This document shows, piece by piece, positions 7,504-13,219 of a stretch of 64,000 nt of DNA (position 1 is its first letter; each line of letters opens with the position of its first letter). This DNA comes from Alphaproteobacteria bacterium (lineage in GTDB: Bacteria > Pseudomonadota > Alphaproteobacteria > UBA7985), in assembly GCA_965661545.1 (NCBI GenBank), contig CBFIEF010000001.1:27250-91249 (forward strand), given 5' to 3'. The notes under the pieces are model-generated. The model was not told the origin of the DNA. It saw only the letters and a program-made list of their open reading frames with translations, and searched no databases. The translations under genes and the position numbers were made by a program.

Positions 7504-9288
7504 TCAGAACGGTAGTGTGGAGCCAAATCGGAGGTTAACCTCTTGGCCAATGCTTTCGATCTTCGCCCAAATTTCCGCGCCCGCCACGTCTTGTGTCAGG
7601 CCGATGGTCAGGGCTCCCAGCTGGTCATATTCCGCTGACAGCGTGCCAATGCTCAGATCAAGCTCGCCTTTGGCGATCCAATACACGGGCTGGCTATCGA
7701 GCGCGTCTTCCAACACACCGATTTGTCCCTGGGCGGAGAACTGTGGCCCAGCCAGTTCGGCTTCTAGCCACCAGTCATTCTCGCTATCCAGACCCATGGC
7801 TATTCGGCTCGCCGGCAAGGGTGCAATGACAGCTTCAAGCTGCCACGCATCAAGAACGCCAGCGATATCGGCATCCAACAAGACATCTGCGCCTAGCGAA
7901 ACACCTCCAAAATCGAATTTTGCGCCGGCAATGGTATTTAAAGCGCGGGTTTGGAACCGAGGCACAGCGGCAACCGCAGCGCTCAAGCCCATGACAGACA
8001 GCTCGCCGGAGAGCACGACGCCATCGTCTGCGGTAACTGACACGATATCAGCCCACGGGCCATCAGCGCTGATCAGGCCCGCATGGTCTTCTGTGCTAAC
8101 GGTAAGGGAGCCGAAGCCGCCTTCGATGAACACGGATGCACCGCTGAAATTCAGCAGTTTGCTGACTGGTTGCATGTAAGCATTTGAGTCGGCTTCAAAC
8201 GGGCTTTGCGTCAAGCATGCCGCACCAATCACCAATTTTTCGGAATTACCGATCGTGCGGATTTCAGCGAACGGACCAACAAACACCTGCGCATTGTTGA
8301 CCAACTCGCCGCTGAGCTCGTCCGCGCCGGGGCTAAACAGAACCGTGGCGGCCTTGCTCGCCGTGCTGTGCCAAACCTCTGCCGGCAGATCAGTGGCATC
8401 GACCATGTTCGGCGTGATTTTTACCGCCTCGAATCGGGTTTGGTAAACCGCCGCCACAGATCCAAATCCCCCATCGCCCGTATTCAGAGAAATACGCGCA
8501 CCAAACGGGTTCGGCAAAGAGTTAACGGCAGAGGGCTTTCCAATGGTTGCCGTAGTCGTGATACCAGTGACCGCCCAGATTTCCCGCCTCGCCAGAAACT
8601 GACCTGCAGGCGCGAAATTGCCGGACTCTCCAACTGCATTGGCAACAAAGATGTCTTCCTTTGAACCACGTTGGAGGCCATTTCCCACCGCAGTACGAAA
8701 GTTAACCGCCGCAACTTGCGCCGGTGTGTTTTCAAATGTCGCGGCCCGGCCCACCATTTGGTTCGCCATGCGACCCGCCAGCATACAGATGTTTTCCGCC
8801 ATGAGTGGCGGGGCGGGAAGTTCGACCGCGGATCGGGTGCCGCCCAAAGTCATCCAGTCAGAATTGATTTTCACGGCAACGATGTCGTCGTCTGACAGCG
8901 GCATGCCGCCAAACGCGCCATAGATTTGCGCATTAATGTCTGTTGGACCTGCGACCGTTTTGCGAATCAAACGATGCTCTTCGACGCCGTTGGGGTCGGT
9001 GTAGTCAAACAAACTCAGTTTCAGCTCGTCCAGCGCATTCAGCGTCAACTTGCCGCCGAAAACCAGACCAGAGTCGGTACTGTTTTCTAAGTCGAGTTCG
9101 ATGTTGGCGAAGGTTGTGTAGTCGAACGCCTCGCCACTCTTGGACAGACCCACGACCGAGCTGAATCCAAGATCACCCCCAAGCGTGACGTAAGTTTCGG
9201 CGCCTGCTGATGCCCCATAGGTCATCAACACGCTCGTTGCCGTCAAAAACAATCTGCGTTTCGGCGCGCACACCCTGTGGTCCACCAA
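7504..9288 (-). CDS. Predicted outer-membrane beta-barrel protein (porin-like, 594 aa). The start codon is uncertain (TTG or GTG candidates).
   Basis: A signal-peptide-like N-terminus (KRRLFLTATSVLMTYGASAGA|ETY) is followed by a Gly/Ser/Thr-rich alternating beta pattern. The C-terminal ...RFGSTLPF ends in Phe, the typical OMP signature. Confidence 0.6.
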   Translation of the reverse strand: MVDHRVCAPKRRLFLTATSVLMTYGASAGAETYVTLGGDLGFSSVVGLSKSGEAFDYTTFANIELDLENSTDSGLVFGGKLTLNALDELKLSLFDYTDPNGVEEHRLIRKTVAGPTDINAQIYGAFGGMPLSDDDIVAVKINSDWMTLGGTRSAVELPAPPLMAENICMLAGRMANQMVGRAATFENTPAQVAAVNFRTAVGNGLQRGSKEDIFVANAVGESGNFAPAGQFLARREIWAVTGITTTATIGKPSAVNSLPNPFGARISLNTGDGGFGSVAAVYQTRFEAVKITPNMVDATDLPAEVWHSTASKAATVLFSPGADELSGELVNNAQVFVGPFAEIRTIGNSEKLVIGAACLTQSPFEADSNAYMQPVSKLLNFSGASVFIEGGFGSLTVSTEDHAGLISADGPWADIVSVTADDGVVLSGELSVMGLSAAVAAVPRFQTRALNTIAGAKFDFGGVSLGADVLLDADIAGVLDAWQLEAVIAPLPASRIAMGLDSENDWWLEAELAGPQFSAQGQIGVLEDALDSQPVYWIAKGELDLSIGTLSAEYDQLGALTIGLTQDVAGAEIWAKIESIGQEVNLRFGSTLPF

Positions 9289-9915
9289 CCAAGTCCCCCA
9301 ACGTAACTCTGTTTTTTGGTTCGCAGGGAAAGTGCCGCAGCAGCAGGGCCTGAGGGTAGTGTTTCTTCGGGTTCGTTTTTACAAAATGCGTTCCCACCGA
9401 AATCTTTGTCTGAGTAAGAAGTTAATCTATCACAAATTAGATATTATGCGTGCTGTTGATCAAAATGAACCCATCAAGAGTTTCTGTTTTATCATTTGAG
9501 AGAGGTCGAAATCACCAAAAATCGCATTTTGTAAGGCCGATTCTCTGCGTGATTCGATAATATTTTGGTGTTTTGAGAAGAGTTGGGCGTTCTGTTGCTA
9601 GGTGCCCAAGACCCCACCTACACATGCTAATGCGCAGGGATTTAGTTTCACGAACTCAGCTGCTTACGCAGCAAGAGCAACTCGTGGAGCAACATAGTTG
9701 TTTGCAACTGTGTTTAAATGACCCGGTTACGCCGGAATCATCACGGGCAAAACAAACAGCTTTCAATGCACGTCGATCCTATTTCGCCCCCAGCAAACAA
9801 CCAACTCGATCAGAATTGGCTCTTTGGTGGAGGCGCCGGGTACCGCCCCCGGGTCCGCAACATCTATTACCTGCTTGGTTTATCGCCATAGAGCGAGGCT
9901 CATCAGGGAATATAA

Positions 9916-10021
9916 GCGTTTTCACGCGCTATGCAATTGGCTACTGATACCGGGCTATGAGTGATTAGGCGTTTTCATAACCCTGGGAATTGGCTACGGC
10001 TTCGGCATTATGAGTGATAAA
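9916..10021 (+). repeat. Two tandem copies of a 53-bp modular repeat (9916-9968 and 9969-10021) that span the thyX start codon
   Basis: Both copies share three blocks in register with an exact 53-bp period: GCGTTTTCA, AATTGGCTAC and TATGAGTGAT. The two 10-11 nt spacers between the blocks are unrelated. Copy 1 carries the mini-ORF ATG AGT GAT TAG (9957-9968). Confidence 0.85.
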
Positions 10022-10960
10022 ACAGATCAAGCCCGCTCCGTCGACCTCGAGATCGAAGAACTTCGCGCGTTCACCCGTCCCACGTCACGGGTGACTTCAA
10101 GCGCGCTTGAGGATCGCCTGTACAAAATTTTTCCCGTTCTCGATCACGGCTTTGTCCGTGTCGTCGATTACATGGGGGATGACACGTCGATCGTGCAGGC
10201 TGCGCGTGTGTCGTACGGCAAAGGCACGAAGTCCGTGCGGAATGACGAGGGGCTGATCCGGTATCTGATGCGCCATCGCCATTCGACGCCGTTCGAGATG
10301 TGCGAAATCAAGTTCCACATCAAGCTGCCGATTTTTGTGGCACGCCAATGGATCCGTCACCGCACAGCCAACGTGAACGAGTATTCCGCCCGCTATTCCA
10401 TGCTGGACCGTGAGTTCTACATTCCCGCGCCCGAGCATCTGGCCGCGCAGAGTGAAGTGAATAATCAGGGACGCGGCGAGGTGCTGCGCGACGAAGAAGC
10501 GAATGATGTTCTTGAGATGCTCAAGGCGGATGCCGTGCGCTCCTATGATCGTTACGAGACGCTTTTGAATGCGCGTCAAGATGGTCGGATCATCAACGAT
10601 GACAAACAAGGCCTAGCGCGTGAGCTTGCGCGGATGACCTTGCCCTTGTCCGCCTATACGCAGTGGTACTGGAAAGTTGATCTCCACAACCTCGTTCACT
10701 TCCTGAGCCTGCGGATGGACCCACACGCACAGTACGAGATCCGCGCCTTTGCGGATGTGATGTACGACATGGTGCGGGACTGGGTGCCGTTGACGGCCAA
10801 AGCGTTTGAAGATTACCGCCTGAACAGCTTTTCGCTGTCCGGGCCAATGGTTTCAGCGGTGCGTCGGATGGTAAGCGGTGAAAAAGTCACCGTGGAAAAC
10901 TGCGGCATGTCCGCGCGGGAATGGCGAGAGTTGCAAGCGGCTTTGGGGCTCAGCGACTAA
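10010..10960 (+). CDS. thyX: Flavin-dependent thymidylate synthase
   Basis: Carries the ThyX signature RHRHSTPFE...ARQWIRHR. The ATG sits inside the second repeat copy. Confidence 0.9.
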
Positions 10961-11824: not shown

Positions 11825-13219
11825 ATGTCAGATTTGGGCGGCGATAACTCCAGCCTGCACCAGAATTCCAACGGCTCCGGGCCTTGGGGTGGCGGTGGCA
11901 ACCGTGGCAATGGCGGTGGTCAAGGGCCTTGGGGCGGATCCAACAATAACAGTGGCGGCAACCGAGGTAGCTCGGGCGGCGGTCAGGGACCGTGGGGCGG
12001 TGGCTCCAACAACGGCGGTGGTGACAGCAACAACGGCGGTGCCAATGTTGAAGACATCTTCAACCGCGCGCGCCGGAATCTCGGTGGCGGTGGCGGAGGC
12101 AGCGGTGGACGCCGTCAATCACCGGGTGGCCTGCCTCGTAACTTGCCGCTTCCGCTGATCATCCTCGGCCTGATCGGTGCGTTTGCTGTGGTTTGGTGGA
12201 ACGCGGGCGGTGTCCGTTTGGTGTCACCTTCGCAACAGTTGGTCGTAACGTTCTTAGGTGAATACCAGACGACCAAGGGTGAAGGTCTGCAGATCCAGCC
12301 TTTGGCACCCTTGCAGCGCGGCTACGTGATCAACGTGCTCCAGCAGCGTGAAACACCGGTTGGTGCCAATGGTGAGCGTGTTGACGTTTCTGCCATTATT
12401 GAGCGTCGTAACCAGCGTCTCGCTCAGTCTAACCCGCGGGCAAGCTCCACCACGGAGACATTGACCGAGGAAGATTTCGTTGAGCCAAACGTGGTTCTGC
12501 AAGAGCTGCAGAACGAAACGCGTGGTCGTCTGAACCAGAACCTGATGCTGACCAACGAAGGCAAGATTGCTGACGTTGACGTCAACGTCTTCTGGAACGT
12601 GAACAACGCGCGGGACTTCCTGTTCAACGTAAAAGATCCGTCGGAGACTTTGGGTGGCTTGAACTCGGTTGATCCGACAGAGACCATCAAGCTTGCCGCC
12701 GAGGCCGCTTTGCGGTCAGCCGTGGCAACCCGTGACCTGGATGAGGTTGTTGACCGTACCGGCTTGGCCATCGACATTGAAACTCAGTTGCAAGCGCTGC
12801 TGGACGAATACGGCGCCGGCATCAATGTCGTTCGTGTTGACGTTCCGTACGCTCAACCACCACTTGCCGTTCTGCCGTCTTACAACGCGGTGAAAAACGC
12901 AGAAAAGACCAAGAACGAGATCATCAACAAGGCTCAGGCCGAAGCGACCCGCGTAACCAACGAAGCGCAGGGTACGGTTGATCAGGTTTTGCAGGAAGCG
13001 ACCGCGTTCAAGAACGAGACGATCGCAGCCGCACGCGGTCAGGCAGAGCGTTTCAAGCAAGTCCTCTCGGCTTACGACGAAGCACCAGCAGTGACCATCC
13101 AACGGCTTTACCTCGACACCATGCAGGAAGTCCTCACGAACGCCGACATGACCATCATTGATGAATCGTTGGGCGGAGATGCCTTGCCGCTCCTTCCCAT
13201 CAGTCCTTTGAACCAATAA
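11825..13219 (+). CDS. hflK: Protease modulator HflK (band-7/SPFH) with a Gly/Asn-rich N-terminal low-complexity region
   Basis: An N-terminal G/N-rich segment with three GQGPWGG repeats is followed by a TM helix and an SPFH domain. It lies immediately upstream of hflC. Confidence 0.85.
   Translation: MSDLGGDNSSLHQNSNGSGPWGGGGNRGNGGGQGPWGGSNNNSGGNRGSSGGGQGPWGGGSNNGGGDSNNGGANVEDIFNRARRNLGGGGGGSGGRRQSPGGLPRNLPLPLIILGLIGAFAVVWWNAGGVRLVSPSQQLVVTFLGEYQTTKGEGLQIQPLAPLQRGYVINVLQQRETPVGANGERVDVSAIIERRNQRLAQSNPRASSTTETLTEEDFVEPNVVLQELQNETRGRLNQNLMLTNEGKIADVDVNVFWNVNNARDFLFNVKDPSETLGGLNSVDPTETIKLAAEAALRSAVATRDLDEVVDRTGLAIDIETQLQALLDEYGAGINVVRVDVPYAQPPLAVLPSYNAVKNAEKTKNEIINKAQAEATRVTNEAQGTVDQVLQEATAFKNETIAAARGQAERFKQVLSAYDEAPAVTIQRLYLDTMQEVLTNADMTIIDESLGGDALPLLPISPLNQ

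Follow-up and report, generated by a model that had tools for sequence, protein, structure and literature searches.

The 53-bp tandem repeat that spans the start codon of thyX, the gene of a flavin-dependent thymidylate synthase, on contig CBFIEF010000001.1 of an Alphaproteobacteria bacterium is probably an old tandem duplication of a tiny control region common to thyX and to the divergent gene ssrA, which encodes transfer-messenger RNA (tmRNA). The ssrA gene is unannotated and was overlooked in an earlier note on this DNA. With the putative core promoter of this divergent gene lying within and beside the repeat copy distal to thyX (copy 1), the meaning of copy 1 changes. The duplicated region would have been compact and bidirectional, and the two copies seem to have divided its roles afterwards; the probability of this reading is put at roughly 55%. 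Positions are those of the window, i.e., the whole 64 kb of DNA analysed, and L-numbered loci are relatives taken from metagenome-assembled genomes (MAGs) of genome collections and from metagenome contigs. The features concerned are as follows.

9581-9940, minus strand: ssrA, two-piece (permuted) alphaproteobacterial tmRNA, Rfam RF01849; the match takes in the promoter
9909-9914, minus strand: putative ssrA -10 hexamer TATATT, context GCTTATATT, 2 nt outside copy 1
9931-9936, minus strand: putative ssrA -35 hexamer TTGCAT, 16 nt from the -10 hexamer, overlapping the first two bases of block B1
9916-9968, plus strand: repeat copy 1, thyX-distal, with blocks A1 (9916-9924), B1 (9935-9944) and C1 (9956-9965) and TAG (9966-9968)
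9969-10021, plus strand: repeat copy 2, thyX-proximal, with blocks A2 (9969-9977), B2 (9988-9997) and C2 (10009-10018; thyX ATG and first codons)
9957-9968, plus strand: mini open reading frame (mini-ORF) ATG AGT GAT TAG, a duplicated thyX start
9987, plus strand: C-to-G change in copy 2, by which the duplicated ssrA -35 became TTC... instead of TTG...
10010-10960, plus strand: thyX, 316 amino acids, a typical ThyX by Pfam PF02511 (197 bits)

Architecture of the Repeat

The two units, 9916-9968 and 9969-10021, have a period of exactly 53 bp and share block A (GCGTTTTCA), block B (AATTGGCTAC), and block C (TATGAGTGAT). Copy 1 is arranged as GCGTTTTCA / CGCGCTATGC / AATTGGCTAC / TGATACCGGGC / TATGAGTGAT / TAG, and copy 2 as GCGTTTTCA / TAACCCTGGG / AATTGGCTAC / GGCTTCGGCAT / TATGAGTGAT / AAA. 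The blocks are identical at 29/29 positions and the spacers at 6/21, which is chance level, with 36/53 overall; the packing of 29 of these matches into three runs has a permutation p ~0.001. The sequence thus bears out the earlier description of two 53-bp copies with three exact blocks and unrelated spacers. The three-block identity stands with the exception of the tenth base of block C, a T in both copies by chance of the window genome, as the base in relatives is A (copy 1) or C (copy 2). The boundary of the copy-1 unit is ambiguous, with 9912-9964 an equally valid phase according to gap placement in MAFFT against single-copy relatives.

The combination A-N10-B with up to 3 mismatches was found in the 64 kb at both copies only, with 0 expected in shuffled sequences. 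Tandem Repeats Finder did not report the 53-bp repeat, because the overall identity of the copies is too low. The duplication is also present in two genome-collection MAGs (L001, L002) and on metagenome contigs (L081, L161-L178, L180), and its occurrence in independent assemblies means that it is no assembly artefact of the window. A third AATTGGCT, noted earlier at 9814-9821, does exist; its position lies in the tmRNA intervening loop, and relatives have AATTGGTT, AATTAGCT, GATTGGCT, or GGTTGGCT instead, so it is a chance match and was rejected as a part of the system.

The ssrA Gene and Its Promoter

RF01849 matched 9581-9940 with 236.8 bits (gathering score 50, E = 4e-69) over model positions 1-355 of 355, and RF04321 (tmRNA_permuted) scored 151 bits at the same gene. 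ARAGORN predicted a permuted tmRNA on the minus strand at 9573-9921, with tag peptide ANNYVAPRVALAA followed by a stop. The acceptor piece precedes the coding piece, and the tag frame ends with ...LAA-stop. The gene is like the alphaproteobacterial two-piece tmRNA of RF01849 in its full-length match, tag frame, and -10/-35 positions. It differs from that family in the 53-bp duplication directly upstream of the promoter, in a -35/-10 spacer of 16 nt against the usual 17, and in a tag with ANNY where ANDN is usual. Among the other alphaproteobacterial loci fetched, tags begin with ANDN... or ANDE..., and that of the window, ANNYVAPRVALAA, with ANNY.

The ssrA -10 hexamer aligns with a conserved UAUAUU in the unstructured first 40 positions of the RF01849 model. 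When 100 distinct alphaproteobacterial ssrA loci were aligned on the tmRNA acceptor end, the consensus was cCcCTTtcaa-N17-gCCTATATT, in which the distance between gCCTATATT and the tmRNA 5' hairpin is constant. This consensus corresponds to the usual sigma-70 promoter pattern of Alphaproteobacteria, CTTGAC-N17-CTATAT. In the window, a relaxed scan gave TTGCAT-16-TATATT, the spacing of which lies within the 16-18 nt allowed. TATATT does not vary among the close relatives, nor does ATGCAA (the plus strand of the -35 hexamer) in their copy 1 or single unit, and the two hexamers probably act as the ssrA core promoter. In copy 1, block A lies within the ssrA -35/-10 spacer and block B on the upstream edge of the -35 hexamer. 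On the plus strand, 9911-9916 reads TATAAG, the mirror of the ssrA -10 and a 5/6 match to a -10 hexamer. The ssrA -10 is near-palindromic, and one AT-rich box could serve both directions.

The Start Region of thyX

The ATG at 10010 is the sole start codon of the thyX open frame, as an in-frame TGA at 9962-9964 closes the frame and no other start codon lies between. No Shine-Dalgarno (SD) motif precedes it, with GGAG, GAGG, and AGGA all missing from the upstream 22 nt; such a motif is present at many other ORFs of the window. The first 17 nt of thyX (10010-10026, ATGAGTGAYAAAACAGA) are near-invariant, including synonymous positions, in 10 lineages that otherwise differ by 40-55% at 4-fold degenerate sites (39-57% in the comparison over the whole gene), which indicates nucleotide-level constraint on the initiation region. 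From the missing SD motif, the conserved first 17 nt, and the low predicted structure, the thyX mRNA would be leaderless or near-leaderless and transcribed from a weak promoter.

The putative thyX promoter consists of TTTTCA of block A, at -38 to -33 from the ATG, and TAC of block B (TGgCTAC), at -15 to -13, with a 17-nt spacer; this geometry predicts a transcription start site (TSS) 0-5 nt before the ATG. In the relaxed scan, it was recognized in copy 2 as TTTTCA (9972-9977)-17-TACGGC, with TAC at 9995-9997 preceded by TGG and with 6/12 consensus matches. Elements A and B and the 10-nt separation between the blocks are conserved, and the spacer sequence is variable. The same scan gave a thyX-type TTTTCA (9919-9924)-17-TACTGA (9942-9947) within copy 1.

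Relatives with One or Two Units

Relatives with 90-99% ThyX identity were obtained by ThyX-based searches of genome and metagenome collections and by exact-protein look-ups. The latter gave most of the extra haplotypes, and the metagenome scan one further close locus with upstream DNA, L081. All close relatives are uncultured Alphaproteobacteria and none is labelled Rhodobacterales, so the affiliation presumed in the earlier note is not supported: the nearest genomes are unclassified Alphaproteobacteria MAGs.

Loci L003, L183, L004, and L181 are in the single-unit state. The duplicated state is found in the window, L002, L001/L162, the L161-L178 population, L179 (partial), L081, and L180. The single-unit sequence reads ...CAATATAA GCGTTTTCA CCGCCCATGC AATTGGCTAC TGATAGGCCAT TATGAGTGAC AAA..., a layout of A-N10-B-N11/12-C in which block C holds the thyX ATG, about 42 nt from the ssrA -10. 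Relatives with one copy only and without conservation of the blocks had been named earlier as the outcome that would speak against function. Some relatives do have a single copy, which is ancestral, but the blocks are conserved in it.

The duplication junction is identical in all duplicated genomes and reconstructs as ...TATGAGTGA joined to ATAAGCG..., of which the fourth base is now G or T. In the alignment, copy 2 of all six genomes reads GAATTGG, against CAATTGG in their copy 1 and in genomes with a single unit. Because of the shared junction and the shared C-to-G change at 9987, the sequences point to one duplication event, with the single unit as the ancestral state. The duplicated genomes also cluster apart from the single-copy ones in the thyX tree, except for the mosaic L179.

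In L179, an upstream region of the L001/L161 duplicated type is joined to a thyX body nearly identical to that of single-copy L003. The upstream regions of L001 and L162 are identical, but 119/948 nt differ in thyX, with only 1 difference in its first 79 nt. Either recombination at the conserved segment of ssrA and the thyX 5' end or chimeric metagenome assembly could have caused the mosaic. Dating of the duplication by thyX 4-fold sites (39-57% differences) was abandoned as a clock, because the locus is mosaic.

Conservation of Blocks and Spacers

The blocks were defined from the two copies of the window alone and scored in the five other duplicated genomes. In copy 2, variable columns make up 7/29 in blocks and 17/21 in spacers (Fisher p = 1.3e-4, six genomes). 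In copy 1, the corresponding values are 8/29 and 10/21 (Fisher p = 0.23). The contrast in copy 1 is weak because its "spacers" hold the invariant ssrA -35 (ATGC) and a conserved TGATA, and because block C1 varies like the spacers (4/10 columns). The view that the block-wise pattern reflects function and not a recent duplication is thereby upheld, as the copy-2 blocks are conserved in five other genomes and the spacers vary. Of the roles that had been suggested for the blocks, promoter plus initiation elements is the best reading of A, B, and C. Blocks A and B are separated by 10 nt in all copies and genomes, and B and C by 11 nt, except in L004 and L181, where the distance is 12 nt. A fixed A-B and a B-C variable by 1 nt fit a -35/-10 spacer and a -10-to-start distance, respectively.

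Copy 1 is eroded in two genomes, both with TTGCAT and TATATT intact. In L081, block A is changed to GCGTTTTTT and block C to TATGTGCGAA. In L180, block A is changed to GCGTTTTTG and block B to AATCGGCTGG, with loss of TAC, and an insertion of about 15 nt (GGGTCACAGACGCAG, L180 ~120-135) separates B and C of copy 1 (aligned with window 9942/9943). The eroded block C of copy 1 in L081 and L180 reads TATGTGCGAA or CATGTGTGAA. Over 9912-10011, the window is 93% identical to L002 and 80% to L001. Over ordinary intergenic DNA (9290-9560), identity to L002 is 60-68%, and L001 is unalignable. On these comparisons, constraint above the neutral level extends over the full duplicated region and is strongest in the blocks.

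Proposed History of the Control Region

In the single unit, the order would be ssrA -10, block A with the thyX -35-like TTTTCA, ssrA -35, block B with the thyX -10-like TGgCTAC, and block C with the start codon. As the putative promoters are interleaved, RNA polymerase could occupy only one of them at a time. Most single-unit genomes lack an SD motif, from which a leaderless or near-leaderless mRNA would be expected there. After the duplication, copy 1 would have kept the ssrA promoter, and copy 2 would have lost the superfluous ssrA -35 while keeping A, B, and C as thyX promoter and initiation region. The own promoter copy of thyX would thereby have been placed 53 bp further from ssrA, pulled apart from the overlapping ssrA promoter. 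Drift of the spacers until the copies looked unrelated there would have given the "modular" pattern. The thyX-type blocks and the ATG mini-ORF of copy 1 would be leftovers, eroding in other genomes; in the window genome, these blocks may have kept activity as a second thyX promoter further upstream. An intact TTTTCA-17-TACTGA in copy 1 makes possible a second thyX start, with the mini-ORF at a leaderless 5' end. The sequences show the tmRNA gene, the duplication with its direction from one unit to two, the conservation pattern of blocks and spacers, and the variable mini-ORF; we infer the bases of the thyX -35, -10, and TSS, the mutual exclusion of the promoters, and any selective benefit of their separation.

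Several points weigh against this history. The thyX promoter is weak when compared with the sigma-70 consensus, as its -35 matches at 4/6 positions and its -10 mostly at just "TA", and a standard promoter scan gave no thyX promoter match. GGAG-like motifs 6-10 nt before the thyX ATG in L004, L181, and several distant lineages suggest that the leader of some genomes exceeds 5 nt, with the TSS further upstream. TATAAG at 9911-9916 could be the true thyX -10, and blocks A and B would then be 5' untranslated region. In the window, L002, L001, and L161, no block of copy 1 has been damaged; because of these intact blocks, and because the region, spacers included, is conserved above the intergenic level, copy 1 is not simply decaying. 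The duplication was seen in only about four independent deep lineages, and the mosaic or possibly chimeric locus weakens its dating.

Alternative Explanations

The mini-ORF is present at 9957-9968 as described in the earlier note, where it was read as an upstream open reading frame (uORF) that might take part in the control of thyX. According to such a model, copy 1 is part of the thyX mRNA, transcribed from the thyX-type promoter of copy 1 or from TATAAG at 9911-9916, and translation of the three codons (MSD-stop) modulates initiation at the thyX ATG, which follows 53 nt later, through re-initiation, ribosome loading, or occlusion. The thyX-type promoter of copy 1 is intact in the window, and copy 1 repeats the B-N11-ATG context of thyX, so the frame would be translated if transcribed. 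The copy-1 ATG is kept in 7/7 duplicated sequences, but this is not significant (p ~0.08, the chance that three given positions stay unchanged when 5/10 block-C1 positions have changed, partial L179 counted). The frame is MSD-stop in the window, MSE-stop in L002, and MS-stop in L179, i.e., 3, 3, and 2 codons, and it has 18 codons in L001, L161, L081, and L180 (MSEYAFSPTAELATANAL, MCEYAFSPTAELATATAL, MCEYPFSPPQELSTSTQP, and MCEYAFPVAPELATACAL, respectively). In the 18-codon versions, the stop TGA overlaps the thyX ATG as in typical translational coupling, but the overlap is arithmetic of the 53-nt period (53 = 3x17+2, and block C holds ATGA). The stop at codon 4 would likewise have arisen from the duplication itself, whose junction joins TGA to ATAA. 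Peptide residues are common only where the DNA blocks are common, block C1 and the spacers of copy 1 vary to a similar extent (4/10 and 10/21 columns), no SD motif is present, and the four single-copy relatives manage without a uORF.

No RNA structure supports such control either. The RNA from the copy-1 ATG into thyX (9954-10045) folds worse than its shuffles (z = +1.52), and the consensus fold of six genomes has -4.4 kcal/mol with a positive, i.e., unfavourable, covariation term. At E <= 1, Rfam gave tmRNA families only in 9000-10400, with no riboswitch or leader, and a scan found no terminator-like site. A riboswitch, an attenuator, and a structured leader were rejected on these grounds, namely the tmRNA-only Rfam result, the fold weaker than shuffles, and the lack of covariation and of a terminator. 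With its length of 2, 3, or 18 codons, variable peptide, spacer-like C1, and missing structure, the uORF does not hold up as a control element, and such control is unlikely. The mini-ORF is most likely the leftover of a duplicated thyX start and not a regulatory device, although it may be translated in this particular genome.

In another explanation, which is similarly unlikely, A, B, and C are contacts on one face of the DNA for a candidate DNA-binding protein that controls ssrA and thyX together, for example in connection with growth rate or DNA replication, and the duplication has doubled its operator. The distances between block centres, 19.5 and 21 bp, correspond to about two helical turns and the 53-bp period to about five, by which all six blocks come to lie on the same side of the helix. 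The blocks are conserved in both copies in the window genome and its closest relatives, the whole region including spacers exceeds neutral conservation, and the tight divergent arrangement of ssrA and thyX across many alphaproteobacterial orders fits shared control. However, the blocks are mutually dissimilar and show no dyad, direct-repeat symmetry, or covering inverted repeat. No further A-N10-B exists within the 64 kb, single blocks occur at chance frequency, and the copy-1 blocks erode in L081 and L180. The blocks are also confined to a small lineage, being absent in the next relatives at about 70% ThyX identity. The CtrA consensus is TTAA-N7-TTAA, and neither this nor the consensus patterns generally known for GANTC, the DnaA box, alphaproteobacterial LexA, and sigma-54 were seen on inspection of the sequence.

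A combination of these two models is quite improbable. In it, the tight divergent ssrA-thyX pair, which most of the sampled Alphaproteobacteria have, would be a co-regulated unit linking ribosome rescue to deoxythymidine monophosphate supply and DNA replication. A, B, and C would be the lineage-specific surface of a shared regulator, the duplication would have doubled the operator, and the mini-ORF would be translated from a leaderless transcript as part of the control.

The two copies may also act as tandem thyX promoters, P1 in copy 1 and P2 in copy 2, both active and kept for higher or diversified expression and not for relief of ssrA interference. TTTTCA-17-TAC is present in both copies, and copy 1 of the window, L002, L001, and L161 has every block intact. 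In L081 and L180, however, the elements of copy 1 have decayed without visible compensation in copy 2, and P1 still overlaps the ssrA core promoter and would hence be occluded. This model is very improbable as such and is a variant of the duplication with role division, not a true alternative. Maintenance of the block identity by concerted evolution or gene conversion was rejected, because the spacers would homogenise too and identities of 9-10 bp are too short. An att duplication or integration scar at the tmRNA gene was rejected as well, as the copies are head-to-tail with nothing between them, lie on the promoter side, and contain no tmRNA sequence.

Comparison with Known Systems

Overlapping divergent bacterial promoters that compete for RNA polymerase are similar in that the single-copy starts are about 50 bp apart and the putative elements are interleaved. 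Here, by contrast, competition is deduced from sequence, one partner is a stable-RNA gene, and a subclade has apparently pulled the promoters apart by duplication of the whole unit. As in duplication with subfunctionalisation, the ssrA hexamers are found only in copy 1, and the thyX-proximal blocks are most constrained in copy 2. Unlike subfunctionalised genes, the unit is 53 bp of non-coding DNA with a start codon, and the division is incomplete, as copy 1 of the window still has all thyX-type blocks. The mini-ORF resembles uORFs, leader peptides, and minimal uORFs in having an ATG, two codons, and a stop in the initiation context of the main ORF, with the ATGA overlap in relatives. It differs from them in the lack of conserved length or peptide, of an SD motif, and of alternative structures, and in its absence from single-copy relatives.

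The feature is an ordinary event, a small tandem duplication of a promoter region followed by differential decay, with no new mechanism. The old internal duplication acts as a second species would, with identity between the copies marking the functional bases of a region of about 50 bp, and thus gives a clean footprint. It may also be a natural experiment in which the overlapping promoters of a stable RNA and an mRNA have separated. Both states are extant in sister lineages, so promoter interference would be directly measurable across them and the separation is a testable case. Block-wise repeats beside a start codon call for a check of the opposite strand; here, the tmRNA gene explains half of the pattern.

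Wider Context and Minor Observations

Of 178 loci with ThyX homologs, 139 have a tmRNA acceptor end on the other strand no more than 500 nt upstream. In 15 of the 139 loci, only 124-133 nt separate the thyX ATG from the tmRNA CCA, and the ATG lies about 12-20 nt past the ssrA -35. The pairing is found in MAGs and genomes labelled Rhodospirillales, Pelagibacteraceae, Rickettsiales, Kiloniellales, Azospirillum, and others (L005-L160). Examples are as follows.

L007, 2347-2474: ssrA-thyX pairing
L032, 46-171: ssrA-thyX pairing
L010, 2311-2474: ssrA-thyX pairing

Among the 139 loci, no other duplication of the thyX start was found beyond this clade, with the exception of L072, which is probably a chance case. 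The conserved pairing across Alphaproteobacteria may merit a separate note; a literature search gave nothing relevant on ssrA-thyX linkage or leaderless thyX. In L071 and L080, MAGs labelled Rickettsiales or Alphaproteobacteria, the ssrA-thyX intergenic region carries successive heptamer-like repeats at about 170 nt upstream of the ATG. The heptamer types are TAATCCC, TAACCCT, and TTAGGCT in L071, and TTAGTCC and CGACTAA in L080.

Elsewhere in the window, an ORF of 594 amino acids without a Pfam match is located on the minus strand at 7504-9288. Over this flank, the window is 61-84% identical to L002 and unalignable with L003 or L004. On the plus strand, 11825-13219 encodes an SPFH/Band-7 protein (PF01145), of which the N-terminal ~110 amino acids are of low complexity and rich in Gly, Asn, and Ser.

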